Assembly: GCA_965197905.1 (NCBI GenBank) | Contig: CBDAOB010000005.1 | Location: forward strand, 704,001 to 768,000 | Reading direction: 5' to 3' | Length of the DNA: 64,000 nt | DNA from: Candidatus Latescibacterota bacterium | GTDB taxonomy: Bacteria; Latescibacterota; UBA2968; UBA8231 | Shown here: one piece after another, positions 16,795-64,000 of the stretch | Numbering within the stretch: the first letter of the stretch is position 1 | Layout of the letters: every line of letters begins with the position of its first letter | The notes under the pieces: generated by a model | The model's input: the letters and a program-made list of their open reading frames with translations, nothing else | Told to the model about the DNA's origin: nothing | Database searches by the model: none | Position numbers and translations under genes: made by a program

Positions 16795-16867
16795 GGGGAG
16801 ACGATGATCGAGGCCCTCTGGTCTGAGGTCGACACCTACTTGGCTGCCGCATCACAAAGGACTGAGT

Positions 16868-18211: not shown

Positions 18212-18286
18212 AGCTACGTAGCTTCGTGACAATACCAGCATTCTCTCTCAGATAATCGGATTGGGATCCGGCGCCGTACAATTAAC

Positions 18287-19699: not shown

Positions 19700-19726
19700 G
19701 TATCGATTCTACGCGGTCGAAACGAG

Positions 19727-21121: not shown

Positions 21122-21136
21122 TACTCTGACGCAAGA

Positions 21137-47012: not shown

Positions 47013-47949
47013 CGAAATGGGTCAGCGGCTGGCGGCCTTCCTTCACACAGTCGATGAAATGCCGATCCTCGTGCCAGAAACCCATCCAGTTGAGTGAATC
47101 CTCGTCGGGCATACCCTCTTTGGTAGCAAACTCCTTGGATTCGTAGCGCTCCTCGTCATCCTTACCCCGTCTGATGAAGGCTTCGCTGGCGGCATCCACG
47201 TAAGCGGAGACGTCGCGCCCGTGGAACTCGACGCGAAACACGCCAACCCCGGTGACGTAGCTGCAATTCAGGATGCCAACGGCACCGGTGCTGAAAGAGG
47301 CCAGGGCGCTGAATTCGTTGTAATGCGGTCCGGGAATGTAGCGGGCACATACGTGAGCGGTCAGATCCTCTACCTCGCCGCCACATAGAAAGCGCAGATT
47401 GTCCACCGCGTGAATCATATCGCAGGTCAGGTTATCGATAACCCCTCCATAGATGCCGGCCGGTTCGCTCAGATTTCGGCCGCCTTTGAGAAAACTCACG
47501 GTTGCCTGGTGGATCGGGCCCTGTTCCTCCAGCTTCGGCTTCAGAGCGGACAGTGCGGGAATGTGCCGGCGTTGGAAACCGACGGCGGTCAAGCAGGAGT
47601 TCTCTGCGGCGAAGTAGGCGAGCATCCGGGCTTGGTTGGTGGTCAAGCCCAGCGGTTTCTCCACGAACAGATGGCGGCCCTGTTGCAGTACCGCGGCCGC
47701 CGGGGCGTAGAGGTGCTGCGGCATCATGATGGCGTACACCACCTGCGGATCGACCTCCTCCAGCATCGCCTCGAAGTCGGTGAAAACGCGTGGTATTCCG
47801 AACTTCTCAGCCGCCGCCGCTGCCTTCTCTTCAATCAGATCACAGGTGGCAACAAGCTCGACATCTGGAAGGCTCGACAAACAGGGATAATGTACGGTGG
47901 TTGCCAGGTTGCCAGCTCCTATCATTGCCACTCGAACCATTTCCGCCAT
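46939..47949 (-). CDS. Gfo/Idh/MocA oxidoreductase
   Basis: IGAGNLA, FVEKPLG, VGFQRR and DMIHAVD. Confidence 0.92.
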   Translation of the reverse strand: MAEMVRVAMIGAGNLATTVHYPCLSSLPDVELVATCDLIEEKAAAAAEKFGIPRVFTDFEAMLEEVDPQVVYAIMMPQHLYAPAAAVLQQGRHLFVEKPLGLTTNQARMLAYFAAENSCLTAVGFQRRHIPALSALKPKLEEQGPIHQATVSFLKGGRNLSEPAGIYGGVIDNLTCDMIHAVDNLRFLCGGEVEDLTAHVCARYIPGPHYNEFSALASFSTGAVGILNCSYVTGVGVFRVEFHGRDVSAYVDAASEAFIRRGKDDEERYESKEFATKEGMPDEDSLNWMGFWHEDRHFIDCVKEGRQPLTHFGDAVKSMELVERILQEGTDPTAQS

Positions 47950-48145
47950 GACGGTCCTCTCGTTACGCGTTTCTTCCTCTGCTTACCCGGGCAGCTTTCT
48001 TACATCAGTCACAAAGAGCACGAAGCACCTTATCCGTCGTTGCGTCAAGTCTCTGGGATTCGCCGCCGTCGTGCGCAGATCGAGAGCCATCGATGAACCT
48101 TTCAATCCATTGTTTTGCCACGATCTTTGTTCTATCTAGAGGAAT

Positions 48146-51028
48146 ATGAGGTTTCTGTCCCGATGCGCCCCACTCGCGCTCGCGTATGTGTCTGCCGGTC
48201 TGTTGCTGTCAGGCGCTACCTACGCGAGCGTGGACAGCGCTTTCTTTCCGCCCGAGACCACGGATCTCCGTCTGGCTCTTCGCTACCCCCGCCCTGGGTA
48301 CGAGAATTACGCGATCAATCACTACGAGAATTACCCTGACCACAGCTGGAACACGCGCGTCCGTGGCCCCCTGATTGGCATAGCTCACGGCGTCGACCGG
48401 CCCAAGGCGTTCCTCGATCTCATGGGGAACCATGTCATCACGGGCCACGACCTGTATACCTGGGTCGAGCGGAGACAACCGGAGCAGCGCTTCGGCAGCG
48501 CGCTGTTTAAGGACTGGCCGGCGTTCCAGCCGCTCTTCACCAGTGTGGCGGTGGCCAACGACGGGTACGGCGACTGGGGATATCACATCATGGCGGGAGA
48601 CGGCCTGATCGCGCGGTTATCGCCTTTGACCCTGTCCAAAACTGATCTATACGGGTTTCGGTTTGATTTTTCTACGCCGCTTTTGAAACTAACAGGTGTC
48701 GGATCGCGTATCGCTCGCCCCAACCGCGAGGCCTCCTACAATGCGGACGGCGGAGAAATAGACGTCAATCACTCCACCATGCTGCTGGGTGGGCGCGCTC
48801 AGCTGGATATCGGTCGGCTTTCGGTGGGCATCAACGGCGCTAACCTGCATTCCTACAACAGCACCGAGACCAACAACTCGATAAAGGGCCGACTGCGACG
48901 AGACCAGCCCACCTACTCTTTTCTGGCGGTGCGTTTTTCGGACGATGCTCCTCAAGATGGCAGGCCCGGTGCGGCGATACAGAGCGTGCTGTTGGTGATC
49001 AATGGGGAGTCAAGGTCCGATCTGCAACCCGGCATCTTTCGCACGCGGTCAGGAACGCGACCCCAGGTCGGACGCACCCTTTCGACCGGCCGATTCATCG
49101 CTTCGGCCTACACCAGCATAACGGGACCGACCGTCTATTACCGGGATCAGGAGCTGCCGCTGTTCGCCGATTTTCTCTATCGGCTGGATCATGAAGCGGG
49201 AGTGGATGTATCCGATCTGGTTCGTCTGGAGGGGATGCTGGAGGAAATTCAGCTGGTGTCACCAGAGGGAATTCAGCACGCCGACGATGGTGAGCAAATC
49301 GTCTACTTCTACGATCTTCGGAACGAACCGTACATAGAATCTGTTGCAGTCGAGGCGGTGGTAGGCAACGACTACCTGGTGGAATGGGCTGGGATCAATC
49401 TCAACGAGATCAACGACACGGCGCCCCGCTATGAAGATCGATATCAGGCATCGTTCTATCGCACCGCGTTGCGCGCCAAAGGAAGAGTGCAGGATCTGTC
49501 CAACCTGGCGCGCCGGCGGTTCGAGGTGGCGGAAAACACGGCGATCTTCACCTACAGTTGCGATCTGCAGCTGACCTTGCCGTGGCTGGACATCAGCGGC
49601 GAGTACGCGCGGTCAGCGCTCTACTCCCGTTATCCGGCCCGCACGCAGGAGCAGTCCCTGGTGAACGAAGGCCCCCGCTTCGACCTGCGAGGCAGCGCTT
49701 ATTTTCTCAACGGGATCAGGCGGTATGACCGGGGCATGCTCGGTTTCGAGGCGTTTTCCATGAATTCAGGTTTTACCACTGACATGCCCACCTACCTCAA
49801 GAAGGACCACGGATATCGCACCAGCCGTGGACAGGACCCGCTGTGGCTGATGACCAACGATACCGTGATCTGGAGTCTTGTGCAGGACAACGAAGATGGT
49901 GATCGCTGGCCCGACTTCTTCGTCGGCAATATCTTGGGCAGTGGGGGTGAAACCGCCGACCGGGACGGGGTGTTCCCCGGTCAGGACGAGGACAACGATG
50001 GATTGGTAGAAACGGACCGCAACTTCAACGGTACGCCCGACTACGAAGAGACGTTCTTGCTTTTCGATGTGGAACCAAACGAGTACGTCTACGGTCTCGA
50101 TCGCAATAACAACGATGAGCCGGACCATCGCGAGGACGATTGGGAATCGGACTATCCGTACGATTCCGATCAGCGCGGCTACCACCTCTTTGGGCAGCTG
50201 AATCTCACGCCAAGCTGGTCTGTTGGGACGGGACGGTACGCCGTTAAGGGACTGGCCGGCGGTGGCCACAATCGCTCGTCGTACGCCCTGTTTGCCTACC
50301 GATGGCAGGGGCGGGACCGCGTGCGGCAGCTATTCTTCGAGAACAACCTGCGCCGTGTGGAAGATGATATCGCCGACAACCACATTCAGTTCAACCGCGG
50401 TAGACGCGAGCGTGACGATCCGCTGCACTATCAGAGCAGCAACGTAAACGAAACCTATCTCGAAGGTGATTTCCGCCCCTTCTCGCAGCTTCGCCTGGTA
50501 CAGAGGCTACGAGTCCGATTCAACTGGCAGCGTGGCGGTCAACTGCCGTCCGGACAGTTTCAGCGCCAAAGACGACTGGACTTCACCGCCTACGTCAGCC
50601 GTCTGGATTACACCTGGAACCGGGGCAGGTTCAGCCTTGTCCCACAATTCAAGTTTCTGTATATGCGTCTGCGTGACAGTGAAATCGATCGAGACCTGCT
50701 GTCGGAACAGCGGATCGTACCGATTCTGAAGATGAGTTATGCGGTCGTTTCGAGAACCACGCTACAGCTGGGAATCCAGGGGTGGGGTCCGTTACCATAC
50801 CGCATCAAAAATAGGGCGCAATCCCGCGAGAGCCTCAAGCAGCGCACGCTGGTGTTCACTACCACCAATCGCACTCGTTACCTGGGATACGACTTGATTA
50901 CGATTGTGGGGTTCAGCAAGGACAGGCTGATTTTCGACGATCCGGCACAGCGTTTCCGTGCGCGCAATTCGCTTCAGTTTTTCGTTCGCAGCGCCCTTGG
51001 CTTCACCGAGTTTGGACGCTTGCTCTGA
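48146..51028 (+). CDS. Large secreted or outer-membrane protein of unknown function (paralog A)
   Basis: Signal peptide, Dx(D/N)xDG loops and amphipathic C-terminal strands; 960 aa; colinear with 60581-63535. Confidence 0.75.
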   Translation: MRFLSRCAPLALAYVSAGLLLSGATYASVDSAFFPPETTDLRLALRYPRPGYENYAINHYENYPDHSWNTRVRGPLIGIAHGVDRPKAFLDLMGNHVITGHDLYTWVERRQPEQRFGSALFKDWPAFQPLFTSVAVANDGYGDWGYHIMAGDGLIARLSPLTLSKTDLYGFRFDFSTPLLKLTGVGSRIARPNREASYNADGGEIDVNHSTMLLGGRAQLDIGRLSVGINGANLHSYNSTETNNSIKGRLRRDQPTYSFLAVRFSDDAPQDGRPGAAIQSVLLVINGESRSDLQPGIFRTRSGTRPQVGRTLSTGRFIASAYTSITGPTVYYRDQELPLFADFLYRLDHEAGVDVSDLVRLEGMLEEIQLVSPEGIQHADDGEQIVYFYDLRNEPYIESVAVEAVVGNDYLVEWAGINLNEINDTAPRYEDRYQASFYRTALRAKGRVQDLSNLARRRFEVAENTAIFTYSCDLQLTLPWLDISGEYARSALYSRYPARTQEQSLVNEGPRFDLRGSAYFLNGIRRYDRGMLGFEAFSMNSGFTTDMPTYLKKDHGYRTSRGQDPLWLMTNDTVIWSLVQDNEDGDRWPDFFVGNILGSGGETADRDGVFPGQDEDNDGLVETDRNFNGTPDYEETFLLFDVEPNEYVYGLDRNNNDEPDHREDDWESDYPYDSDQRGYHLFGQLNLTPSWSVGTGRYAVKGLAGGGHNRSSYALFAYRWQGRDRVRQLFFENNLRRVEDDIADNHIQFNRGRRERDDPLHYQSSNVNETYLEGDFRPFSQLRLVQRLRVRFNWQRGGQLPSGQFQRQRRLDFTAYVSRLDYTWNRGRFSLVPQFKFLYMRLRDSEIDRDLLSEQRIVPILKMSYAVVSRTTLQLGIQGWGPLPYRIKNRAQSRESLKQRTLVFTTTNRTRYLGYDLITIVGFSKDRLIFDDPAQRFRARNSLQFFVRSALGFTEFGRLL

Positions 51029-51056
51029 ACTCTTGTACGGATGGGCACAAATCGCC

Positions 51057-52820
51057 CTAGCGGGTTTCAGGGCACCGGCCCGTTCCCGGCGCGATGCGGA
51101 CGATCTGATTGGCGGCAAAATCTCCGAATTCTTCCTCCGAGCCGTCCGGCCATCGCACCACCACGCCGAGAATCTCTGTTTCCCGGCCCAGTCCAAAGTG
51201 GACCCGCGGGTCGTTGGCGGCAAGATAGCTGTAGGCGGAGCGGACATCGCGCATTTTCCGGATCGATCCCACGCCTGCCGTCACCCGCGCTCCCTCAGCG
51301 GGGCTGCCCGCACGATTTACCACCTCGAACATGATCCAGTTGCCCCGGTTGGGGGCCCGGTTGTGCAGCAGATGGGCCGGAGCATCGCGATTGACCACCA
51401 GCAGGTCCATGCCCCCGTCGTTGTCAACGTCGCCGAAGGCCGCCCCCCGGCTGGTGGCGGCGAGCAGCTCGGCCGTCCCACCTCGGGGCAGGACCTCTTC
51501 GAAACGAGGCCCCGGTTGTCCTCTAAAGAGGATATTCGGCTCGGCAAACGGATCGACGCCGTAACGTTTGGGGTTGTTCTTGTAGATGCGTCCGTTTGCC
51601 GAGTAGAGATCGAGCCGTCCATCATTGTCGAAATCCACCATGCCCGCACCGAACCGAGTAAACAGGGTGTTTTGAAGCGCCAGGCCGACAGATGCGGTCA
51701 TATCCGAGAAATACGAGCCCGCGTTCCGATAATAAGAGTCGGTCTCCGTTTCCAGGTTGACTACATGCAGATCGAGGGTGCCGTTGTCGTCCAGATCGGC
51801 GACGTTCACCCCCATGCAGGCCTTCGGGCCACCGCTGTCGTCCACCGCGCATCCCCGGAGAACCGCTTGATCGGCGAATGTCCCGTCTCCCTGATTCATC
51901 CATAGCTGGTTCTTGCTTCCGTCGTTCGCCACGAAGATATCCGGGTGTCCGTCCTCGTCGAAGTCCGCACAGACCACCCCCAACCCGGCGCCATAGGCGG
52001 TATGCAAGCCGGACGGCTCCGACACGTCCCGAAAGCGGCCTTCGCCGTCGTTGAGATACAGCAGGTCCGGCACCGCTGTCTTGTAATTGACCGGGCCGCA
52101 ATAGTCCGGCTCTCCAAGGGAGGATACACACTCCTGGTCGGTCTCCACCGACCAGTCGAGATAATTCGCCACGAAGAGATCGAGATCGCCGTCCCTATCG
52201 AAATCGTGGAACGCGGAGCTGGTGCCCCAGTTGCGGTCGTTCACACCAAACGCTGACGATACGTCGCGAAATCGCACGCCGTCCTCATTCGTCAGCAGAA
52301 GATTGGGGCCGTAGTTGGTCACGTAGAGATCGGTCAATCCATCGCCATCAACGTCGCCGGCGCTGACTCCCATTCCGTATCCGGTATGGCCACTGCCGCT
52401 CCCATCAGTCACGTCGGTGAACATGCCCGTGCCGTCGTTGCTGAAGAGGCGATTCCCGCTTCTGCGACTCGCATCCGCCAGAACCCCGGCCTGCACGAGA
52501 TAGGCGTCTAGGTCGCCGTCGTTCTCCATATCGAACAATCCGACCCCGCCGGCCATGATCTCAGGGAGCAGGTGCCGCTCTCTGAATCCGGAGTCGAGGC
52601 TGAATGAGATACCCCGTTCCTCGGCGACCTCATGGAACCATGGTCTCCGGGCATCGACAGCTGAGCGAGTCGGGGTTTCGGGCGCCCCGTTCTCAGGGCG
52701 GCCGTCGCACCCGGGCTCTAAAAGTGTCAGGAATAGGACACTAATGAGAGGTATAAATCTGAGGAAGGGCTTACTTTCCAGCACGTGGATGGGAATGACT
52801 GTCCGAAGGGTGAAAAACAC
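51057..52820 (-). CDS. CRTAC1/ASPIC-UnbV family FG-GAP repeat protein
   Basis: Repeated DxDxDGxxDL(F/Y)V motifs, SRGAAFGDVDNDG, SYLAANDPRVHFGLG and VRWPDG. Confidence 0.92.
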   Translation of the reverse strand: MFFTLRTVIPIHVLESKPFLRFIPLISVLFLTLLEPGCDGRPENGAPETPTRSAVDARRPWFHEVAEERGISFSLDSGFRERHLLPEIMAGGVGLFDMENDGDLDAYLVQAGVLADASRRSGNRLFSNDGTGMFTDVTDGSGSGHTGYGMGVSAGDVDGDGLTDLYVTNYGPNLLLTNEDGVRFRDVSSAFGVNDRNWGTSSAFHDFDRDGDLDLFVANYLDWSVETDQECVSSLGEPDYCGPVNYKTAVPDLLYLNDGEGRFRDVSEPSGLHTAYGAGLGVVCADFDEDGHPDIFVANDGSKNQLWMNQGDGTFADQAVLRGCAVDDSGGPKACMGVNVADLDDNGTLDLHVVNLETETDSYYRNAGSYFSDMTASVGLALQNTLFTRFGAGMVDFDNDGRLDLYSANGRIYKNNPKRYGVDPFAEPNILFRGQPGPRFEEVLPRGGTAELLAATSRGAAFGDVDNDGGMDLLVVNRDAPAHLLHNRAPNRGNWIMFEVVNRAGSPAEGARVTAGVGSIRKMRDVRSAYSYLAANDPRVHFGLGRETEILGVVVRWPDGSEEEFGDFAANQIVRIAPGTGRCPETR

Positions 52821-53175
52821 GGGCAGAATCTACGGAGGAACCGGTACGGCGGACAGTTGTTGCTGCTGCAACCACCCTTCGGCGGCGGGATTGGGCGCGA
52901 TCTCTTTCGCCACCGTCGTCAGGAGATCGCCCTGACCCGCGCGGGAGCTACCGCAAGAAACGTCGTAAATCGCAGCGGTCCGCTTGCCGGGGTTGTAATT
53001 GCGCAGTGCGGTTAGAGAGTCGTAATTTCCACCGTACGATGCAGGTTGTCACGGCGGGAATATCGATATCACCATGCGGTGGTCGGATCGAGTTGTTGGT
53101 GGCGACCGCAGTCTGTACATACCACGAGGTGGGCACGCCGCCTCCCGGTTGTGGTCGACACCAAGGAGACAAACC

Positions 53176-54288
53176 ATGAAAATCGAACGCATCGAAGTTC
53201 GCTCGGTGGGGCCTCCGACTGAACAGTTCACCTGGTCAGACGATCTGCCGGCCCAGTACGCCACCAACACCGTGCTGCGGCTGTATACGGATGAAGGGTT
53301 GGAAGCGGTTTCCGGAGTATGGAACGCCACGTCGTACGGCTACGAGAAGTACACCGCCGAAGCCATCCGCCACATCACGCCCATTCTCATCGGCCGCGAT
53401 CCGCTGCAGCGGGAGGCGTTGTGGCACGATATCAGGCCCAGGGTCTTCCCGGTGCCGCCCCAGGCCCTGGCCTCCATCGACATCGCCCTGTGGGATTTGG
53501 CCGGAAAAGTGGCGGGGCTGCCTATCTATCAAATTCTGGGCGCCAGGCGAGAGCGCATCCGCTCCTATGCCAGCACCCCCATGCTGGAGGATATACCCGC
53601 CTACTTGGAGTTCGTCGCGGGGCTGTTGGCCCAGGGTTATACAGCGGTCAAGTTCCACACCTGGTGCGTCCCTGACAAGGACCTCGAGCTTTCCAGGGCG
53701 GTGGCCAGGGAGTTCGACACCGGGGCCATCGATTTCATGCTGGACGCGGAGAACAACTACGATCGGGCCAGTGCGCTGAGAGTTGCCCGTGAGATTGAGG
53801 AACTGGGATTCACCTGGTTTGAAGCCCCCCTGCCCGACTGGGACCTGGACGGCTACCGGGAGCTGACGCGAGCCACCTCCATACCGGTGTTGCCCTCGGG
53901 CAACTGGTACATGGACCTGATGACCTTCAACGAGGCGATCAAGACCCACACTTGGAGGTCCGCCCGCACCGACGTCCACATGATGGGCGGGATCACCCAA
54001 ACGCAAAAGGCGATGGCGCTGACGGAAGTGGCTGGCATCAACTGCGAACTGATGTCCTGGGGATACAGCCTGAACTCAGCCGCCAATCTCCAGGTGATGC
54101 TGGCCCACGACCATTGTTCGTTCTACGAACACTCGGTGCCCCAAGAACCGTACGAGTACGGCATGCACGACGTCATTCGCTCGGATGCCAACGGATACGT
54201 GCGCGCCCCCACCAAACCCGGCCTGGGCTTGGACGTGGATTGGGAGCGGATGGAAGCGGCTACCTTCCACCAGTTCACCATCAAATAG
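53176..54288 (+). CDS. Mandelate racemase/muconate lactonizing enzyme (enolase superfamily)
   Basis: SD AAGGAG; IDIALWDLAGK, YAS, MLDA, WFEAP and PGLG. Confidence 0.92.
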   Translation: MKIERIEVRSVGPPTEQFTWSDDLPAQYATNTVLRLYTDEGLEAVSGVWNATSYGYEKYTAEAIRHITPILIGRDPLQREALWHDIRPRVFPVPPQALASIDIALWDLAGKVAGLPIYQILGARRERIRSYASTPMLEDIPAYLEFVAGLLAQGYTAVKFHTWCVPDKDLELSRAVAREFDTGAIDFMLDAENNYDRASALRVAREIEELGFTWFEAPLPDWDLDGYRELTRATSIPVLPSGNWYMDLMTFNEAIKTHTWRSARTDVHMMGGITQTQKAMALTEVAGINCELMSWGYSLNSAANLQVMLAHDHCSFYEHSVPQEPYEYGMHDVIRSDANGYVRAPTKPGLGLDVDWERMEAATFHQFTIK

Positions 54289-54314
54289 CGCTATTGGGCA
54301 AGGGCTTAGCGCTA

Positions 54315-55157
54315 CTAACGCAAGAGCAGCATCTTGCGCGTTGACATCCGCGCACCTGATTCCAGGCGATACATATATACGCCAGAAGCCAAGTATCTCC
54401 CCGCTTCATCTTGTCCATCCCAGCTCACCGCGTACGCCCCGGCCGCCGCGAAATGTCCCAACAATTCGCGGACTCGGTGTCCATCTGTGTTGTAGATCCG
54501 CAGAGACACTGGCCCGCGCTCAACCAGGACGAAGCGGATGGTCGTAGCCGCGTTGAAGGGGTTGGGATAGTTCGCCTCCAACGCAAAGCGATCCGGCTGC
54601 GCTTCACGTGCTGTCACGTCGGTTGTAGACTCCGCTGCCTGTCCCTGTGCAACCGCAAGGTCTGACAACGCTTTTTCGATAGCTGCCGTGATACCCTTCA
54701 CGTCCGCTTGATCCGACAGACCGGTGGAGCGAAAGCGGATAAACCCCTCGTGGTCGACGACCACAAAATTGGTTTGTTGCAGCCCGTACAATCTTATCAG
54801 CGACCTCGCCTTCATCAGTAGCGGGAAGGTTACGAACGTTGTCCTGCGAAACTCGAATTCTACCTGCCGGGGGGATCCATCCCATACATCGACGCCAATG
54901 GTGATGAAAGGTCGGTTTTTGTATTCCTGCCAGATCTTTTCAATCTTCGCGGCCTCCGCGATACAGAAGTGTCAGGCGTAGCCAAAGATGTCTATCAAGA
55001 CCACTTTGCCCCTGAAGTCGCTCAGGGACACCTGGCCTCCGCCCAACTGCTGCAGCGTAAAATCAGGCGCAGGATCGCCCTTCCGCAGCTCACCTTGCGA
55101 AGCGTTCGGCCACACCAGACCGAGAATCAGTAGCCATGAATAGATGGATCGGGGCAT
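54315..55157 (-). CDS. Selenoprotein: secreted TlpA/redoxin with UxxC plus C-terminal FlgD-Ig domain (280 aa, Sec at TGA 54972-54974)
   Basis: GDPAPDFTL..SLSDFRGKVVLIDIFGYA-TGA-HFCIAEAAKIEKIWQEYK..IGVD..FPLL reads in frame into ORF 54315-54815, which has NYPNPFN..WDGQDEAG..ASGVYMYRL..KMLLLR. Confidence 0.88.
54947..54961 (-). promoter_or_regulatory. Bacterial SECIS-like hairpin
   Basis: mRNA UGA-CACUUCUGUA-UCGCGG-AGG-CCGCGA: a 6-bp stem whose G-containing loop follows 16 nt after UGA. Confidence 0.6.
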
Positions 55158-55347
55158 ACTCCAACACCAGGTGAGACAGTAGATAGGAGAGATTATTTAG
55201 TACGGGGGCGTGTGACCATCCGCGCACCCGTACGAGAATGATACACCATTAGATCGCTTCTACAGCTAAATGGTTTCGTCCCACATGGAAAGCAGTGGCC
55301 TGAAGGTGCACTCGTCCGCAACGGGTCGGCGGTGGAGCGAATAGAGC

Positions 55348-56463
55348 CTAGCGCGACCAGCTCTGTCCGGGAAAGGGGGCTCGCAAGTCGTAGGCTCCTT
55401 CCTGTATCACGGGCAAGGTGCCGTCTTCTACCATCATATCGAGGGGACTTTGGCGCGTTCGGAGGGGCATGGCAACCACGTTCTTTATGCGCAGGGATTC
55501 GTAGATCGCCATCATGATCTCCATCGTGTACCGCGCCTGGCGGCCCGTGCTGCGGTGCTCAGCGACGCTGCCCTCCATCCAGTGGATCAACTCCTTGAGC
55601 TGGTCGGTCTGCAACGGTTCTGGGGTGATCTCCTGCCAACCGCTGCGGTGGTCCTGGTGCAGCAGGACGTGACCATCCGGGCGCAGCGCGATCTTCCCGT
55701 CACTGCCAATGACGCCGCTGAGGTCGCGGCTGGTTGCCCAACCGGGATTGCCAGCCACCGCAGGGGCCGGGGGCAGCATCATGCCCGGCTCGGGCAAGTC
55801 CTGTTCGTAGACGCCACGGATGCCGCCGGCGAAACAAACGATTCCAGCGCAAAGGTCCTCGCAGTAGCTGCGGCGTTCCCACCGATCGGTGAAACGCGCC
55901 GTCTGGGCGATGACCCAGAGAGTCTCCGGATCCGACAGCGAATAGCGCCAGGAATCGATCGCGTGGGTGCCTGAGTTCAGCAGTCCGGAAACTGGTCGGG
56001 CGCGGTGGTACACGAGAAGCGGCTGGCCGATGGCGCCGTCGGCCACGAGCCGGCGCACCTCATTGAGGGTGGGACAGAAGCGGTTCATGTGGCCTATGAC
56101 CAGCTTGACCTGGTGGGCGTCACAGGCGGCAATCATGTCGTCGGCCTCGCCCAGAGAGGCCGCCACCGGTTTTTCGCACAGGATCGCTTTGACACCCGCT
56201 TCGGCAGCCGCGACGGTGGGTTCCTTGTGAGCGCATTGCCAGGTGGTAATGCTGACAATATCCAGATCCTGTTCAGCCAGCATGTGGTGATAGTCGCTGT
56301 ACGCGGCAGGAACCGAAAACTCCTCGGCGAGCCCATTCAGCGGCTTTTGGTTGACGTCCATCGCAGCGACGACGTCAGTGGCGGGGTTCTCGGCGTAAGC
56401 GCGCAGGTGGGAACGTCCCATCGTGCCGCAGCCTATGATACCGACCCGGTAGGTATCGGTCAT
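55348..56463 (-). CDS. Gfo/Idh/MocA oxidoreductase
   Basis: IIGCGTMG, ILCEKPVA and LLNSGTH. Confidence 0.92.
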   Translation of the reverse strand: MTDTYRVGIIGCGTMGRSHLRAYAENPATDVVAAMDVNQKPLNGLAEEFSVPAAYSDYHHMLAEQDLDIVSITTWQCAHKEPTVAAAEAGVKAILCEKPVAASLGEADDMIAACDAHQVKLVIGHMNRFCPTLNEVRRLVADGAIGQPLLVYHRARPVSGLLNSGTHAIDSWRYSLSDPETLWVIAQTARFTDRWERRSYCEDLCAGIVCFAGGIRGVYEQDLPEPGMMLPPAPAVAGNPGWATSRDLSGVIGSDGKIALRPDGHVLLHQDHRSGWQEITPEPLQTDQLKELIHWMEGSVAEHRSTGRQARYTMEIMMAIYESLRIKNVVAMPLRTRQSPLDMMVEDGTLPVIQEGAYDLRAPFPGQSWSR

Positions 56464-56478
56464 GGTTTGGTCACCTCC

Positions 56479-57111
56479 TTACGAGCCGTCGTCCGCGACC
56501 CGCAGCGCAAGGTCGTTCCAGACGCCACCCATCTCATAAACGGCATTGAAGGTGCTGCAGATTTCATCCATCAGGTGGACGCGTGAGGTGCCCTCGGCCG
56601 CGCCGTCGCCGAGGTTCTTCTTGAGCTCTTCTGCCCGCTGCGCACTGGCTGCGGCAGCCGTCGCTGTGGCTCGTGCCAATTCCGCAAAATGGTCTACCAT
56701 TTCCTCCAGAGGGGTCTCCATGTCGGTGGTGACATTGAAGTGGTGGGGAGGGGGAAAGCGGGGAGCATGGCGCTCGCCATCGGGATCTCTGCCAGTGTGG
56801 GTGGGATAGATGTGTGGGGTGACGGAGAGATACATGATCACCTCCTCATCTCCCAGAGCGCGGAGCGTGTGCGATTCATGGGCGAGGGCAACGATCATCT
56901 GGCCGGGCCCAACCTCGGCCTCCTCGCCGCCGATTTCGAACAGACAGCGACCCTGAAGCACTATGAAGATCTCGTGACCCAGATCGTGACTGTGATATTG
57001 GCCACCTCCTGGCCCGGGAGCGAGGCGCATCAAACGGGAGCGGATCTGCGGCGTAACCAGAAAATTGTTCAGGTCCTCTTCTCTTCTGAAGTCGTAGACT
57101 TTAAGTCCCAT
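56479..57111 (-). CDS. Cupin domain protein
   Basis: SD AGGAGG before ATG 57111; YHSHDLGHEIFIVLQG and GPGQ..HESH. Confidence 0.82.
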   Translation of the reverse strand: MGLKVYDFRREEDLNNFLVTPQIRSRLMRLAPGPGGGQYHSHDLGHEIFIVLQGRCLFEIGGEEAEVGPGQMIVALAHESHTLRALGDEEVIMYLSVTPHIYPTHTGRDPDGERHAPRFPPPHHFNVTTDMETPLEEMVDHFAELARATATAAAASAQRAEELKKNLGDGAAEGTSRVHLMDEICSTFNAVYEMGGVWNDLALRVADDGS

Positions 57112-57157
57112 GGTCTTTCCTCCTGCGTCGATAACGATGGCCTCGTCGTAGCACGCT

Positions 57158-58001
57158 TCACCTTTTGTTAATGTCTGCCAGAATTTCAGGGCCTCGTTCA
57201 CCGGAAGATCTCTCGCGGGCTGTGCGCTCGAGATATTCTCGGGTTCTGCCCGTGAGAACGCCGTAGAATCGGCGCGCTTCCCCGTCGGGATGGTCGCGCC
57301 ACAGAGATGCGGGGATCATGGATGAGCTCGAACCCTCGAGGTCCCTGCGGTGGCGATGGCCGTAGCAGATCTGTACGGATTTGCGTTCGGACTGCGTTGG
57401 ACGCACGGAAACGGAGTGCAGAACCGAGACGTTGAGCAGCGTCGCCGTACCGGCGGTCCCGTAGAGTTCGCGGATCCCGCCGCGCTCGAGCTGAGCTTCC
57501 TTATCCAGGATTTCCTGATCGACCGATTCGGGCGAAACGGCGAGGCTGTGGGTCGTAGCGTCTACGTCAGCCAGGTAGATTATCAGCATGATCAGGCCGA
57601 TGCGCAACGGATGTTCCGGCCACATGAACCGTTCCCCGCCGTTGCGATGCCAGCGGTGCCCTACCGGCCCTTCCCACGAGGTTAGCCCGGGAATCGACTC
57701 ACCTGCGTACGGCCCCATGTGCCGCAGGCAGATTTCCGAGAAACAGAGTTCGTCGCCCATCAAGGCCTGGAGCGGCTCCATGACCATCGGGTGGCGAACT
57801 ATGTCATTAAACTCGGGCGTTGTAAGGAGCGCGTCGCCGTAAATCGTTTTGCCAGATCCCGGTATCCTTCCAGAAATTGCCCCGGTCCCGTCGTTCCTGG
57901 TCGAAAAGTTGCGTAAAGTGGGTCACCTCATCGTCGCTAAAGATCTTTCCCAACGACAGGTAGCCGTTGCTCCTGAAGAAATCGTAATCCTCTTGCCTCA
58001 T
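57158..58001 (-). pseudogene. PhyH-family dioxygenase with a +1 frameshift near 57847-57850
   Basis: FFRSNGYL N-terminus; removing one A from CAAAACG gives IWQTIYGDALLTTPEFNDIVRHPMVMEPL, which joins the two ORFs. Confidence 0.8.
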
Positions 58002-58098
58002 TGCGTGCCTTCCCTTCGTCAGGCGTCCGGCCTGTCGCAGCCTCTTGGGGAATTCGCTGAGCGTTGTGACTGCAGAGCAGGTAAGGTAGCCATCGGCA

Positions 58099-58917
58099 CT
58101 ACGAGTTCGCCTTGAATTTCACCAGCTCTTCGGGCATGTGTCCCTGGTGCGCCAGCACCTGCTCGAGATGAGTCTGTCGCCGCGGTCCGGCCGTGGCCAG
58201 CATGATTTCGTCGTACATGCTGTCGATGCCGTAGCGAACGTGAGCAGTGATACAATCCTTCAGTATGCTAATGTGCTCGTCGGGAACGCGTTCGCAGCAG
58301 TTGATCGTGAACATGCGACGTCGGGTGCCGCCGCCGAAGGACGCGTGCTTGAGGCTGTGAATGAAGACCACGACGTCGCCCGGCTCGGTTTCTACCGCCA
58401 GCGACGGTAGGTCTGGCCCTTCTACCCCCCACTTTTCGGACGACTGCTTGATCTCCTCGTGCAGCTGCGAGGAATAGACATCTTCGAGTCGGTGGCTTCC
58501 CGGAATCAGACGCAGGCAGCCGGAGTTCCGCTTTACGGAGTCGAGGTAGAAGGCGACTTTCACGAATCTCACCTCACTGATCCAGCGGTCTGAATGCCAT
58601 GGCGTGTCACCGACGAAGAAATTGCCGTCCGAGCCGACATAGTTGAAGCCCTCGCCAACCAGGCCTTCCACGAGTCCTTCAATCCGGGGGTCTTCCAGTA
58701 GCGCGCACAGACGCTCGTGCTGGTCGATAAACGGTATAATCGACGAGCGCTTGCCGCCGGAGTGCCATTCGCCGTTGTTACTGGGCCGACGCGTCCAGAC
58801 TTGCTCGAAGGCATCGATGATTTCGCCGACGCTGTCGCGCATCAGACCGGGTAGGGCGATAAAACCGAAGGTTTCGAAGAAGGATTTCTGGTGCGGAGAG
58901 AGCCGAAAGCGGTCCAT
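58099..58917 (-). CDS. PhyH-family dioxygenase
   Basis: FFETFGF, WHSD, GCLRLIPGSH and PGDVVVF..LKHAS. Confidence 0.9.
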   Translation of the reverse strand: MDRFRLSPHQKSFFETFGFIALPGLMRDSVGEIIDAFEQVWTRRPSNNGEWHSGGKRSSIIPFIDQHERLCALLEDPRIEGLVEGLVGEGFNYVGSDGNFFVGDTPWHSDRWISEVRFVKVAFYLDSVKRNSGCLRLIPGSHRLEDVYSSQLHEEIKQSSEKWGVEGPDLPSLAVETEPGDVVVFIHSLKHASFGGGTRRRMFTINCCERVPDEHISILKDCITAHVRYGIDSMYDEIMLATAGPRRQTHLEQVLAHQGHMPEELVKFKANS

Positions 58918-59003
58918 TATCCACCGTCCTCTTCTGGTGAGTCTGAGGCGTCAGCTAGCCTGATCTCGTGTTGCGCGGATCGTATCAGAGGGTATGCGTG
59001 GTA

Positions 59004-59215
59004 ACTCAATCCCACAAGTCGCCGCCGGCCCCAAGCCCATCAGGTCCTGCTGGGCCGTTCCGCGTACCAGCTGTCGGGATCATCTGGATCCGTTTCTGCA
59101 AATGCCACAAGGCGCGGGCGTTGTCTTCGGTCTGCTCGCGGGAGATCACCTGGAGGGCAATGACGTAGCCATTTTCGTCGAAGAATTCCAGATCTCTGCT
59201 ACTGAGTACGGTCAT
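59004..59215 (-). pseudogene. Degraded PhyH-like gene remnant
   Basis: VLS..DLEFFDENGYV; after a frameshift it reads AETDPDDPDSWY, then a stop, then RRLVGL resembling a family C-terminus. Confidence 0.65.
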
Positions 59216-59544
59216 TGACAGTTCGCGCAGGTTATACCTTGCTCTACAAAAATTAACGTTCTAGACAGAATAATAACGCAAGCGTTTGATTCGAGACAAG
59301 ATCTCGGCAAATAACGTCTGGTCTATCCGCCACTTCAGCCATTTGAAAGGGGGGGCGGTACCGACCTTGCCGGCAGCACCCGCTATGAGTACTCGTTTCC
59401 TGGCCACCTCACACTCTGAATTGGAGGTACTACCTTGCCGCTATTGGCGATAATGCCACTCATTCGCCCCATCCTCCGCTGAATCCTATGCGGTAACGCA
59501 GTTCGCGCAGACGACAGATAGCCGCCCACCCTGGGAGCAGCCTC

Positions 59545-60153
59545 ATGAACGAACTGTTGCCGGGTCTGCGCCACTGGCGCACCCACAATCCAGACATCGA
59601 CTACGACGTCGATTGCTACTGGGCCACGTCCGCAGGTGTCAGTTACGTCCTCGATCCGCTCGCTCCCAAGGAGGGATTGGCGGTGTTCGATGGCGAGGAG
59701 GCCCCCCAATACGTCTACATGACCAACCGGCTGCACGATCGCAGCTGCGCGGAATTCGCCGAGCGGTTCGGCGCCCCTATCTGGTGCCCGCGCCCGGGCC
59801 TGCACGAGTACGCCGACGGCAGCCTCGAGGTCAGGCCGTACGACGCCGGCGACCTGCACGGCGGCGTCCGTGCCATCGACATCGGCGTCATCTGTCCGGA
59901 CGAGATGGCCCTGGTGTTGCCGTTCGATACCGGTGTCCTGGCTATAGCCGACAGCTTCATCCGATACGGCGACGACATCGGATTCGTGCCGGATTACCTG
60001 ATGGGGGACGACCCCGAGCGGATCAAGCGCCGCACCAAAGCCCGTTTCCTCGAAGTGTGTGACGACGTCGACTTCGATCACCTGCTCTTCGCGCACGGCA
60101 CTCCTTTGATCGGCGGCGGGCGAGAAGCGCTGCGAGCCTTCTGTGCAAGTTGA
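59545..60153 (+). CDS. Metallo-beta-lactamase-fold protein (degenerate motif)
   Basis: VLDP, TNRLHDRS, IADS and LLFAHG. Confidence 0.7.
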   Translation: MNELLPGLRHWRTHNPDIDYDVDCYWATSAGVSYVLDPLAPKEGLAVFDGEEAPQYVYMTNRLHDRSCAEFAERFGAPIWCPRPGLHEYADGSLEVRPYDAGDLHGGVRAIDIGVICPDEMALVLPFDTGVLAIADSFIRYGDDIGFVPDYLMGDDPERIKRRTKARFLEVCDDVDFDHLLFAHGTPLIGGGREALRAFCAS

Positions 60154-60453
60154 GTCGGTGGGGACCGATCAGTTGTACCATCGCCCGAGATGATACCTGA
60201 ATAGCCGTGGATATCCGGTTCATCCGTCAACTGAATCATGTCGCCGTCAGGAGATCCGACTCGATAATAGTTGACTGCGCCAGATCGGTAGGATGCCACG
60301 ACTACCGACTGCTCGTCCGGAGTGAAAGATGAAGTGAGAAAGTAGAGATTGTGATGGATGGTCGGTTAACTGAACAATATGCGCGCCCGTCTGACTATCT
60401 CGAAACGATCGCGATTCCGATGGAAAGATTTTACCCTTGGAATAACTGGTCAT
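60154..60453 (-). pseudogene. Frameshifted, truncated oligogalacturonate lyase/TolB-like propeller remnant
   Basis: KGKIFPSE..FRDSQTGAHIVQLTDHP, then in a shifted frame HNLYFLTSSFTPDEQSVVVASYRSG..IQLTD. Confidence 0.7.
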
Positions 60454-60580
60454 ATCGCTTCCCCTTGCTCAAGAGAGTATCCTTCCATAGAGTACAACCA
60501 ACTGATCGGTTGGCTACCGACTCGCGATTCCGCGCTGTCGATCGCCCGCAGATTGCCCATCCCAAGACAGGCAGTTTTCC

Positions 60581-63535
60581 ATGCCGAGTGATTTCCTGAA
60601 ACAACGGTCAGAGAAGAGGCGGTGGCGTCTGCTATCCCTGCTCGCCCTGTGGGGGTTCGCCGCGCACGGCCAAGAACCAATCCTCGACGAGGTCTTCTCC
60701 GCACGGCCGTTCCTGCGTTGGAATCGCGCCCCGTACCAAAACTTCGCCTGGAGAACCTTCGAGAACTATCCCAACCATGAATCTCCCTACACCGATCAAC
60801 CGAGGGCGCACTACGACTCCTTCGGCAACCTCCTTATGACCGGGTACGATCTGTATAAGTGGGAGGAAATTCGCGCTCCAAGCTTGCATTTCGGCAGTGA
60901 CATATTCAAACACGTACCTGGCTCCTGGAACAGCGCCTTCGACTACATGGTGGCTACCAGCGGCGGTTACGGTAACTGGGGTTACCATCTCATCGTGGGA
61001 GACGGGCTGATTGCGCGTTTTACGCCGTTGACCCTCTACAAGGTGGACTTCAATGGAGTTCGCTTCGATCTGTCCACCCCCCATCTGAAACTCACCACGG
61101 TTGCGTCCCGCGCCGAACGACCGATGGACGACCATTTCGGAGGAACCGGAGGGGGCGAGCAGTTTCAGCGATGGCTGCACCGGGCCGATGATTCCACCCT
61201 GCTTCTTGGGGGTCGCGCGCAGAGTGGTCTAGGCGCCCTGACGCTGGGCCTGAATTGGGTGAACCATCATATCTACCAGACCACCCAGACCGGTAACAGC
61301 CTGAAAGGCAGACTGAAACCGGACCACCCGTTGATGGACTGGATCATCGTGCGCTTCAAGGATGATTCGCCGGCCGACGGCGTCGGTGGGGCGGCCGTGC
61401 AGGAGGTGCAACTGGTGGTTAACGGCGAGGTCCGTCCCGATCTGGTTCCGCGGGTGTTGAGCCACGAGGCCGATCCCACCATTCAGGTAGGGTTCACCTC
61501 TGCGCTCACCGGAGATTTCACCCCCGTGGGCTACAATTTTGCCAGCGCCGCCCCCGAGGCTTTTTACTACCGCAACCGCGATTATCCCCTCTTTGCCGAC
61601 TACCTCCTGCGGCTGGATCATGAGGATGGGATTGACGTGAGTGGCGAAGGCAATGTTCCCGGTCTTCTTTCCACCTTTGCGATAGAGTCGTCCCAGGACC
61701 AACTACGGGCGGACGGTGAGCGGGAGGTGGTCTTTTTGTTCGACTTGACGACCGAACCCGCAGTCGAGTCGGTGGCGGTGGAGGCGCTCCTGGGGAACGA
61801 CTACCATGTGGAGGTAGCAACGCTCTATGTCAAGTCCTCGTTCGCCAAATCCTACCCGGACCGGTTCTCGGCCAGCTATTACCAGGATCTGGCGCGTTCT
61901 CGGGGCAATGTCCGGGACCTGTCCAATCTCAAGCGCCGGCGCTTCGATATCGGGGAGAACACCGGACATTTCGTCTACAGCGCCGATCTAAACCTCGAGC
62001 TGCCAGGACTGGAGATCGCCGGCGAGTACGCGCGCTCCAGCGTCTATTCGCGCTATCCCGCCGAGGTCGACAACCACGCCGCCTTCGATGAGTCGCCGCG
62101 CTTCGCCGACCGCGGCTCCGCCTATTTTCTCAATGCCGTGCACAATTTCGAGCGCGGGCTGGTAGGCGGCGAGCTGTTCTCCATCAATCCGGGATTTTCC
62201 ACCGAGTTCCGTTCCTATATTCATACGGAAATTATGTTCTGGCGACACCATCTCAACGGTATGCGCAACGACTACATGTACTGGCAGACGGTGGACGACA
62301 ACGACGACGGGGATCGTTATCCCGACATCCGGCATGGGAATCTGGTGGGCGGGCTCATTGACCAGCAGAGTACCGACCTGAACGGCGTATTTCTGGATCA
62401 GGACGTGAACAAGGACGGGGTCCCGGACACCAACCGCGACCTGGATCGCATCCCCGACTACGAAGAGCCGTTTTTGATGTTCGACGTGGAGCCCAACGAA
62501 TACGTCTACGGCCTCGACCGCAACAACAACGACGAGCCCGACCGGCGGGAAGACGACGGGGAGGTGGACTATCCGTACGACTACGACGAGCGCGGCTTTC
62601 ACCTGTTCGGCCAATGGAACCTGACGCCACATTGGCGTCTAGCGGCGGGGCACTACTCCATCAAGGAGGTGGCGGGCGCAGGCCGTAGCCGTTCCACGTA
62701 TGGGCTGGTAGGTTACCGTCGACAGGGGTTGGGGTGGCTCAGGCGGATTTTCCTCGAGAACAACAGCCGCAGGGTGCAGGATGACATCGTCGACGAGTTC
62801 ATGGAGTTCGACGATGACGCTGGCGCCCGCGATACCCTGTTTGGTTCGCGCGGGGTGCAATATCTGCCCGACGCCCCGCTGGGCCAGGGCATCGTAAAGT
62901 TCCTCGCGGTTGACTTCAAACCGGATCTGCTGTTCTACCAGGAGAGCTTCGTGAACGAATCCTACCTGGAGGGTCGTGCCCAGCTCCGGTCGGGTCTGGA
63001 TCTAGTACAGCAGCTTCGTGTGCGCTTCAACTGGCAGCAGGGCGGAAAGCTGCGCCGCGGACCTTTCCAGCGCGATCGGCGCCTGGACTTCTGGACTTCA
63101 GTTACCCGCGTGCAGTACTCGTTTCAGTTCGGCCAGCTGCGCTTCACACCGCAATACAAGCTCTTGCTGCTTCGTTTGGAGGATCAGGAGCGCAACGTGC
63201 GGTTGCGGTCGGAGTTGCGCTCCATTCCCATTCTGCGGTTGGAATATGCCCTTTCGCCGAGGACGCTGCTGCGGGCGGGCGTGCAGGGTTTCGGGCCGCT
63301 GCCGTATCGGCGTCGAGACGACACCTCGGAAGGCAGGAGTTTCGAGCAACGCACGACCTTCTTCTCCCTTACCAACAGTTCTCCGTATTTTGGCTACGAA
63401 CTGGTGACCATCGCGGGCATTATCAGGGACCAGCAGAAGTTCGACAGCGGATTCAGGGACCACCGGAGCTTCGAAACTCTCGAGTTTTTTGTGCGCGCGC
63501 TGGTGGGCTTCACCGAATTCGGACGGCCGATATAG
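60581..63535 (+). CDS. Large secreted or outer-membrane protein of unknown function (paralog B)
   Basis: Signal peptide RRWRLLSLLALWGFAAHG; colinear with 48146-51028; 984 aa. Confidence 0.75.
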   Translation: MPSDFLKQRSEKRRWRLLSLLALWGFAAHGQEPILDEVFSARPFLRWNRAPYQNFAWRTFENYPNHESPYTDQPRAHYDSFGNLLMTGYDLYKWEEIRAPSLHFGSDIFKHVPGSWNSAFDYMVATSGGYGNWGYHLIVGDGLIARFTPLTLYKVDFNGVRFDLSTPHLKLTTVASRAERPMDDHFGGTGGGEQFQRWLHRADDSTLLLGGRAQSGLGALTLGLNWVNHHIYQTTQTGNSLKGRLKPDHPLMDWIIVRFKDDSPADGVGGAAVQEVQLVVNGEVRPDLVPRVLSHEADPTIQVGFTSALTGDFTPVGYNFASAAPEAFYYRNRDYPLFADYLLRLDHEDGIDVSGEGNVPGLLSTFAIESSQDQLRADGEREVVFLFDLTTEPAVESVAVEALLGNDYHVEVATLYVKSSFAKSYPDRFSASYYQDLARSRGNVRDLSNLKRRRFDIGENTGHFVYSADLNLELPGLEIAGEYARSSVYSRYPAEVDNHAAFDESPRFADRGSAYFLNAVHNFERGLVGGELFSINPGFSTEFRSYIHTEIMFWRHHLNGMRNDYMYWQTVDDNDDGDRYPDIRHGNLVGGLIDQQSTDLNGVFLDQDVNKDGVPDTNRDLDRIPDYEEPFLMFDVEPNEYVYGLDRNNNDEPDRREDDGEVDYPYDYDERGFHLFGQWNLTPHWRLAAGHYSIKEVAGAGRSRSTYGLVGYRRQGLGWLRRIFLENNSRRVQDDIVDEFMEFDDDAGARDTLFGSRGVQYLPDAPLGQGIVKFLAVDFKPDLLFYQESFVNESYLEGRAQLRSGLDLVQQLRVRFNWQQGGKLRRGPFQRDRRLDFWTSVTRVQYSFQFGQLRFTPQYKLLLLRLEDQERNVRLRSELRSIPILRLEYALSPRTLLRAGVQGFGPLPYRRRDDTSEGRSFEQRTTFFSLTNSSPYFGYELVTIAGIIRDQQKFDSGFRDHRSFETLEFFVRALVGFTEFGRPI

Positions 63536-63539
63536 ATTC

Positions 63540-64000
63540 GTGAGCACACCTGGTTCATCACACCGTTCAGACCGGTGGGCGATCACCCCCCGCAGCCTGG
63601 TGATCGGCGCATTCTCAGCCCTGAGTATCGCGCTGATCCTGCCGTATACCATAAACGTGATCCACGGCTCGCGCATCGGTCTCAGCTCCTGCACGCCGGC
63701 CGCATTCATCCTCTTTTTCGTAGTGATGCTGACGGTGCAGGTGGTGCTCACCTTGCTGAAACGAAACTGGCATCTGCGCCCCGGGGAGCTCGTAGTCATC
63801 TTCAGTATGTTGGCGGTGGCGACGCACATTCCCAACCGCGGCGTATCGGGGAGGCTCGTGGTCGGGGTTACGGGGAGTAGCTTCTATGCCACCCCCGAAA
63901 ACAACTGGACCGAGCTCGTTGACGAGATACGGCCGGATTGGCTCGCGCTCAGCGATAACCGGGCGGTCCAGGATTTGTACCACGGCGGGGACGTCGACCG
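63540..64000 (+). CDS. DUF6785-type membrane protein, 3'-partial and absent from the ORF track
   Basis: Manual translation from GTG 63540 gives AITPRSLVIG..LRPGELVVIF..FYATPENNW with no stop to the window end; homologous to the N-terminus of 45000-47012. Confidence 0.8.
   Translation, partial: MSTPGSSHRSDRWAITPRSLVIGAFSALSIALILPYTINVIHGSRIGLSSCTPAAFILFFVVMLTVQVVLTLLKRNWHLRPGELVVIFSMLAVATHIPNRGVSGRLVVGVTGSSFYATPENNWTELVDEIRPDWLALSDNRAVQDLYHGGDVD

Follow-up and report, generated by a model that had tools for sequence, protein, structure and literature searches.

A family of large predicted outer-membrane beta-barrels in Candidatus Latescibacterota and the ExbB/ExbD operon of its core members

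Background

Active uptake across the outer membrane has so far, to our knowledge, been credited to TonB-dependent transporters. The barrels of TonB receptors have 22 strands and are closed by a folded N-terminal plug, the SlpA/OmpM connectors are homotrimers of 30-stranded barrels, and in the Sus-type systems the capture of substrate at the surface is a role of SusD, SusE and SusF. Here we describe a family of predicted large outer-membrane beta-barrels, two members of which (paralogues A and B) are encoded in a stretch of 64,000 nucleotides of a Candidatus Latescibacterota genome (assembly GCA_965197905.1, contig CBDAOB010000005.1, positions 704,001 to 768,000; hereafter the window), and we compare it with the described systems that it most resembles.

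The text of PMC9388160 presents SlpA of Deinococcus-Thermus as a very large barrel with metal-binding acidic insertions, defined by an SLH domain, a coiled-coil stalk and 30 strands. Motor-coupled transducers with non-TonB heads, encoded near TPR-tolQ-tolR-tolR genes, have been proposed by Williams-Jones et al. (2025; PMC12204202); the words 'Latescibacter', 'DUF4159' and 'PorV' do not occur in the main text of that paper. In type IX secretion the binding of type B cargo by PorP is described (PMC9143113), and the Agl-Glt system of Myxococcus xanthus is described as having three outer-membrane barrels, a TPR protein, an adhesin and a three-protein motor (PMC11761067).

An undescribed family of large predicted barrels

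Paralogue A (48146..51028, + strand, 960 residues) and paralogue B (60581..63535, + strand, 984 residues) align in a single BLASTP block at 46% identity (residues 37-958 of A against 37-982 of B), in line with the full-length colinearity that a first-pass annotation of the window had reported. The family to which they belong is real and undescribed. Searches of Pfam, NCBIfam and the PDB sequences with A, B and three family profiles brought up no usable match, everything found lying below the cut-offs of characterised families (for A and B against NCBIfam, no match at E <= 0.1), and no description was found in the literature on Latescibacter(ota), outer-membrane and type IX secretion topics, judged by title and the start of the abstract in a search that had subscription papers and supplements outside its range.

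The family is predicted to form large outer-membrane beta-barrels. AlphaFold2, run on A with an alignment of 117 sequences, gave a model with pLDDT 82.3 and pTM 0.80, in which DSSP reads 23 successive strands between residues 134 and 953, their connections being short turns on one side and long loops on the opposite one, and further short strands at 87-122; the barrel would thus probably have about 24 strands in all. The earlier expectation of a barrel holds in this model, which is not that of a soluble fold. Coevolution analysis of 540 sequences (effective 339) is noisy: it gave coupling signals between many neighbouring strands, and it did not find the closing strand pair and so does not fix the strand number or the filling of the lumen.

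Two big insertions both lie on the long-loop side of the model of A, the side predicted to face outwards. One is a beta-sandwich (48860..49531 in A, + strand, residues 239-462; 61292..61966 in B, + strand, residues 238-462), placed by DSSP in A and by folding the matching part of B alone (pLDDT 91.5). A known lectin or usher plug was rejected as its identity: there is no Foldseek match at E <= 0.001 and the best structural match has Z 5.0, so that it is a generic beta-sandwich only, the lack of a structural match not showing a new fold. The other, an Asp-rich segment (49877..50170 in A, + strand, residues 578-675), is the most conserved part of the family and holds 26 of the 63 family columns that are conserved at >= 85%; 18 of these 26 are D, E or N. 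The segment is a putative metal-binding lid or plug, which may bind calcium as the first-pass annotation supposed. Among the 45 intact paralogues of the source genome, conservation is 0.64-0.74 in the strands and the acidic segment and 0.30-0.55 in the loops.

The likenesses between A and B that had been listed from the sequence stand in the main. Both have GFTEFGR near the C-terminal end, and both contain an identical run of 21 residues starting at A640 (50063..50125, + strand) and B634 (62480..62542, + strand). Since the coding DNA of this run differs between A and B at 9 of 63 bases, the run reflects conservation, and gene conversion was rejected as its source; it occurs exactly in only 2 of the 45 intact paralogues and in a relaxed form in 16. 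The reported Dx(D/N)xDG loops are found three times in each protein in a looser form, but the strict form just once in A and twice in B. Likewise, the last strand shows the alternating hydrophobicity that had been noted, but just 7 of the 23 strands pass a crude alternation test. Signal peptides are predicted from an N-terminal hydrophobic window in each protein and the lack of a 19-residue transmembrane window after residue 45.

The A/B region is no assembly artefact: every one of the 30 bins of 47000-64000 is covered by contigs that come from three DNA runs (three studies), and long pieces of near identity fall within both A and B. At window position 59104, which is intergenic and outside A and B, all three DNA runs have one extra base, a possible slip of the assembly. 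In one RNA run (n = 1, word share 0.07) two short contigs of 218 and 151 nt fall in B, which does not show transcription.

Comparison with known barrels

Our best guess is that the family works like the Ton/SusC-SusD systems, yet it fails the sequence tests for TonB receptors, SlpA, SprA, PorP and the ushers. With the Ton/SusC-SusD systems it shares the many paralogous outer-membrane barrels in catabolic loci and the encoding of putative surface binding proteins beside the barrel; a shared ExbB/ExbD motor that acts through an arm with a single transmembrane helix would be a further common feature, with which operon, co-occurrence and adjacency agree. Against the 22 strands of TonB receptors, at least 23 are predicted for A, and, as the first-pass annotation had remarked, A and B have no TonB-receptor motifs (no match to PF00593 or PF07715 at E <= 0.01). 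Further differences are the large inserted beta-sandwich and the Asp-rich segment, the DUF4159 end of the arm, a barrel partner that resembles type IX cargo and not a SusD lipoprotein, and the separate TonB system that the source genome keeps.

All 50 best VIA rows for A are membrane barrels, none of which stands out (Z 9-14), and by query length the Foldseek TM-scores do not exceed 0.25. SlpA (PDB 8ae1, 7zgx and 8agd; PF21620) takes Foldseek ranks 2, 3 and 5, and its VIA alignment (Z 12.5) has a root-mean-square deviation (rmsd) of 5.5 Å over 343 residues, the lowest among the long alignments. In the source genome 32 matches to PF21620 were found, all in paralogues and all to one stretch of the profile; the cut-off of 35 bits is not reached by any of them, the best having 31.8 bits and B 18.7 bits over 71 of 656 positions. 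Unlike SlpA, the family has no SLH match in Pfam, no long helix (stalk) after the signal peptide in the model and fewer than 30 predicted strands; its TM-score to SlpA is 0.19-0.24 and its Z is tied with those of unrelated barrels.

For the fimbrial ushers (PapC/FimD) there is no Pfam match in A or B and no chaperone or pilin among the annotated barrel neighbours, and FimD aligns with the model of A only at an rmsd of 7.6 Å. NF033709 and TIGR03519 (PorP/SprF/PorV) find no match in A or B either, those carriers having some 300-370 residues; a family barrel is three times the size of PorP. SprA has about 2000 residues, and neither TIGR04189 nor any other NCBIfam model matches A or B. A true SprA match lies elsewhere in the source genome (C2:401858-407182; such coordinates give contig and positions). 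Because 167 of the 168 genomes of the phylum have SprA as a separate protein, we rejected the idea that the barrel is a substitute for it.

Family size and distribution

A census of the 6.69-Mb source genome by tblastn and profile search gave 59 family loci, which make up 2.35% of the genome. Of these, 53 are near full length and 10 are in more than one piece, being split by a stop or a frameshift for which assembly error and decay are both possible. A and B are thus no special pair: among the intact copies (median identity 49%) they rank only 22nd and 35th of 44 in each other's lists. The closest paralogue of B (74%) is one of two further copies just beyond the end of the window (window-equivalent 66734-76180; C5:770734-780180), one of which is broken near its 3' end; these two are accompanied by another DUF6785 gene and an upstream k18 gene (see below).

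Two relatives, here called G150 and G017, contain 79 and 32 copies, respectively. A profile search gave 796 representatives at 50% clustering, the best 150 of which were inspected. Named relatives are Ca. Latescibacterota metagenome-assembled genomes (MAGs), one with a protein 96% identical to B, and distant representatives, annotated as 'hypothetical protein', come from Latescibacterota, Handelsmanbacteria, MAGs labelled 'Gemmatimonadota' and, in one cluster, Ignavibacteria. Within the phylum, 107 of 168 genomes match the family, including all 75 others of the source's own taxonomic family and 30 of 31 spread over nine further families. In four other families the counts are 0 of 31, 0 of 3, 1 of 22 (E 3e-4) and 0 of 5 genomes.

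The conserved operon and its motor

In genomes with few copies the barrels are part of an operon. It starts with c0 (a gene for an F5/8C protein whose end resembles a C-terminal domain, or CTD, of type B), a PorV/PorP-like barrel, one to three family barrels and a TPR protein of about 1100 residues, and it continues with DUF5683, a lipoprotein, ExbB, usually two ExbD, a protein composed of a transmembrane helix, a linker and a DUF4159 domain (hereafter the transducer) and an AgmX/TonB-C-like protein. Genomes of several families show this order again, some of them completely and others partially. The PorV-like gene is separate from the barrels and scores below cut-off (E 3e-21), and the AgmX/PglI plus GltG domain match on one operon neighbour is weak. 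In the source genome the operon lies at C5:471194-492209, with ExbB/ExbD/ExbD divergent.

The same genes surround the barrels in metagenomes. In 72 loci, taken from the best 80 of 372 matches to a search pattern that favoured core-type barrels, we found DUF4159 in 32, TPR in 31, c0 in 23, TonB-C-like in 20, ExbB in 16, ExbD in 16, k18 in 11, PorV-like in 10 and DUF6785 in 4 loci; at least one gene of the motor module was present in 37 of the 40 loci of >= 10 kb.

The full-length transducer occurs in 14 of 14 barrel-positive genomes (E <= 5e-83) and in none of 19 barrel-negative ones. The latter give weak best matches (E >= 7e-28), which cover the bare DUF4159 domain only in the 16 genomes for which a span is listed. 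In a similar way, all of 12 barrel-positive genomes have c0, and none of 14 barrel-negative ones does. These sets are hand-picked subsets of the 168 genomes in which kin are not independent. In genome G048 a transducer is at most 312 bp away from 9 of the 11 barrel clusters, and in G017 c0 is directly upstream of at least 12 of 19 barrel clusters (0.02 expected), a lower bound, as 44 of 186 candidates were scored. A separate observation is that G047 has 45 matches to the DUF4159 transducer profile, far above any other genome tested. In the literature DUF4159 was found in the Pfam paper only, subscription journals and supplements lying outside the search.

The transducer resembles the vWA-headed force transducers of PMC12204202, as presented there, in its transmembrane helix, linker and non-TonB head and in its place beside TPR, tolQ-like and two tolR-like genes. 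Two things differ: the head is here DUF4159, and the operon also encodes giant barrels, a PorV-like barrel and CTD proteins as cargo.

A tree of 45 barrels of the source genome and 47 others (midpoint root, a single FastTree run) contains three old subtypes, which correspond to operon positions 1, 2 and 3. The position-1 and position-2 subtypes remain single copy in the source genome, and 43 of its 45 copies, among them A and B, are united in a single clade (support 0.948) within the third-position subtype. The expansion therefore descends from the third barrel of the conserved operon. In the expanded clade a changed C-terminal tail is typical, and GFxEFG-like ends are found in 38 of the 45 intact copies.

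Surface proteins and catabolic surroundings

The c0 proteins match clostridial carbohydrate-binding modules and lectins (E ~1e-8). In the source genome a second type of CTD protein with two immunoglobulin (Ig) domains, k18, is encoded 21 times, and 12 of these genes lie within 3 kb of a barrel. The k18 proteins (C5:780296-782383 and 20 other loci) are secreted, have about 650 residues and contain a FlgD-like Ig domain near each end and a middle part that is assigned to no domain; 15 of the 21 genes have a barrel or DUF6785 gene no more than 3 kb away. The most enriched barrel neighbours are k18 (11/21), DUF6785 (11/36), PhyH-type proteins (18/128) and an unnamed cluster of proteins of about 500 residues (14/122), followed by sulfatases (6/30) and BNR proteins (5/24). 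The barrels do lie among catabolic genes, as the first-pass annotation had it.

The presence of a PorV/PorP-like barrel and of type B CTD-like cargo immediately before the family barrels recalls type IX secretion and suggests another function: the barrels could serve in the outer membrane as a motor-driven platform by which surface proteins of type IX secretion are held or moved, in adhesion, gliding or envelope remodelling, and no import would be needed. PorP-type B anchoring (PMC9143113) and GltABH-CglB would be the models. Three ancient barrel subtypes in a fixed order, with TPR, ExbB, two ExbD and an AgmX/PglI TonB-C-like protein, agree with such a platform, as Agl-Glt is described with three outer-membrane barrels, a TPR protein, an adhesin and a three-protein motor (PMC11761067). 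The operon and Agl-Glt are alike in an ExbB-type pentamer with two ExbD-type subunits, TPR and TonB-C-like proteins, three outer-membrane barrels and a surface protein. This likeness is, however, one of gene content only, with the single weak AgmX/PglI and GltG domain match, and the barrel is heavily duplicated here. Moreover, 53-79 copies with variable loops, scattered among catabolic genes, are not needed for motility or anchoring, and the source genome has more than twice as many barrels as c0 and k18 cargo taken together. We consider the display function unlikely; were it correct, it would link ExbBD motors to type IX cargo.

A possible energised import system

Because the operon of the conserved copies also contains the genes of a proton motor and of surface proteins that are predicted to bind sugar, it is likely that the family forms an energised uptake route separate from the TonB receptors. 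The barrel system is independent of SusC, as had been suggested at first, but probably not independent of a motor. For A and B we see an even chance that they are substrate-selective, ExbBD-energised importers that resemble SusCD and are built from unrelated parts; capture, gating, coupling and the direction of import are what we infer. Type IX-secreted carbohydrate-binding proteins (c0, and in the source genome more often k18) would catch substrate at the surface in the manner of SusD/E/F, and a barrel paralogue with matching variable loops would admit it. The pore may be closed by the N-terminal ~100 residues, the Asp-rich segment or both, and the proton-driven ExbB/ExbD motor would open it through the TonB-like arm that ends in the DUF4159 domain. 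A single shared motor locus could energise many dispersed barrels, as TonB does for its receptors, and DUF6785 and the catabolic enzymes of the same islands would handle what arrives in the periplasm, with no fixed pairing. A complex prediction for a barrel of genome G070 (insert left out) and its DUF4159 neighbour scored 0.00 and counts neither way.

Several observations weigh against this reading. To serve 53 barrels, the source genome has only two full-length transducers and two c0 genes, and no transducer, c0, k18 or motor gene lies beside A or B. The motor-binding small-x3-His motif, present in 19 of 35 transducer helices, is absent from the core copy of the source genome. Neither a plug domain nor a TonB box was identified in A or B, and residues 21-83 lack a confident model (pLDDT < 50). 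The operon evidence itself has its limits: the pattern used on the metagenomes was biased towards core-type barrels and away from the expanded clade, surface display is indicated just as well by the PorV/PorP-like and type B CTD genes, and the co-occurrence of transducer and cargo with the barrels may rest on few loss events, since the profiles were built from barrel neighbours and the negatives are four related families. Finally, TonB receptors are present in all 33 genomes examined, with 27 matches and a separate canonical TonB operon in the source genome, and barrel-rich genomes have no fewer of them; the idea that the barrels replace TonB receptors was rejected, as no such pattern appears in these 33 genomes.

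The scarcity of transducers in the source genome, the lost His motif and the lack of a motor gene near A and B would also fit expanded copies, A and B among them, that act as passive substrate-selective porins and have left the motor behind, with core copies alone being motor-linked. The changed tail of the expanded clade agrees with this, as does the fact that the closest structural look-alike is SlpA and not a TonB receptor. On the other hand, transducers (in G048) or cargo (in G017) multiply and still adjoin dispersed barrels, the N-terminal motifs and the acidic segment are retained alike in expanded and core copies, and a barrel of such size requires closure. Passive porins therefore seem a decidedly improbable explanation.

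It is conceivable, though we hold it with some doubt, that a second energised importer of independent build is at work in Latescibacterota and in one or more Ignavibacteria lineages. Its giant barrel would descend from a core of three subtypes with one swappable specificity subunit, receive substrate from type IX-secreted lectins and be opened by the pull of an ExbBD motor through a DUF4159 arm; this would be the first active outer-membrane importer family outside the TonB-dependent transporters, at 53-79 copies per genome. The family has about twice as many copies as there are TonB receptors in the source genome, and it is accompanied by a motor arm and lectin-like surface proteins of its own. 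Import would make it a convergent SusCD system that annotation pipelines have missed in a widespread uncultured phylum, and it would give DUF4159 and the newly proposed non-TonB force transducers their first candidate outer-membrane target.

Relation to DUF6785

The first-pass annotation had put forward the barrels and the neighbouring DUF6785 proteins as a candidate outer- and inner-membrane uptake system. The gene arrangement that it described is correct. Four nucleotides after the stop of B, an in-frame GTG opens the reading frame of a DUF6785 multi-pass membrane protein (63540..64000, + strand, continuing to window-equivalent 65501). A is divergent from a Gfo/Idh/MocA oxidoreductase gene (46939..47949, - strand), which lies between A and a DUF6785+DUF6784 membrane protein gene (45000..47012, - strand), the latter being an island neighbour and not an obligate partner. 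DUF6785 proteins, with 8-12 hydrophobic helices each, may be transporters; a profile of 12 sequences, compared with the PDB with an OPT-fold transporter in mind, found nothing. No papers on DUF6785 were found, with the same journals and supplements outside the search as for DUF4159.

That each barrel forms a dedicated uptake pair with a DUF6785 protein finds some support in the neighbourhoods. The source genome has 38 DUF6785 loci, and 12 of the 59 barrels lie within 3 kb of one, against an expectation of 2.4 for the whole genome and of 5.6 when shifted locally (p 0.002); the link of B is kept in its close relatives, and in G150 64 of 79 barrels are within 20 kb of DUF6785 (expected 24 global, 44 local). 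The enrichment foreseen by the first-pass annotation is therefore present, but not an obligate partnership. Only 2 of the 59 barrel loci have DUF6785 directly downstream on the same strand within 100 bp. Barrels with DUF6785 no more than 1 kb away are as frequent as chance predicts in G150 (2 of 79 barrels, 1.5 expected) and in G017 (1 of 32), and the 22 of 32 barrels of G017 that lie within 20 kb are not above a tight local null. Across the 168 genomes the two families are uncoupled in both directions: all 61 genomes of four families have DUF6785, although 60 of them have no barrel and one a weak match (E 3e-4), and it is missing from 13 of 13 barrel-positive genomes of another family. Of the 40 metagenome loci of >= 10 kb, in which core copies are over-represented, 3 contain DUF6785. 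The dedicated pair is thereby largely refuted as an obligate one and altogether very improbable; DUF6785 and the barrels share catabolic islands and are not a unit.

In one place of the source genome DUF6785 adjoins a motor. At C4:1069269-1080995 two large genes that carry no annotation are followed by a DUF6785 gene, which lies on the same strand as a canonical TonB operon (TPR, ExbB, ExbD, ExbD, TonB) and directly upstream of it, and this is the sole DUF6785-motor adjacency in that genome.

Other features of the window

Convergent with A, at 51057-52820 (- strand), lies a gene for an FG-GAP/ASPIC-UnbV protein that belongs to a cluster of 33 genes in the source genome. A short open reading frame at 54315-54815 (- strand) corresponds to little more than a type IX CTD/FlgD Ig domain and is possibly a remnant. 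Farther away, at 15292-22510 (+ strand), five consecutive open reading frames of 447-500 residues follow each other on the same strand in a stretch of lower GC content.

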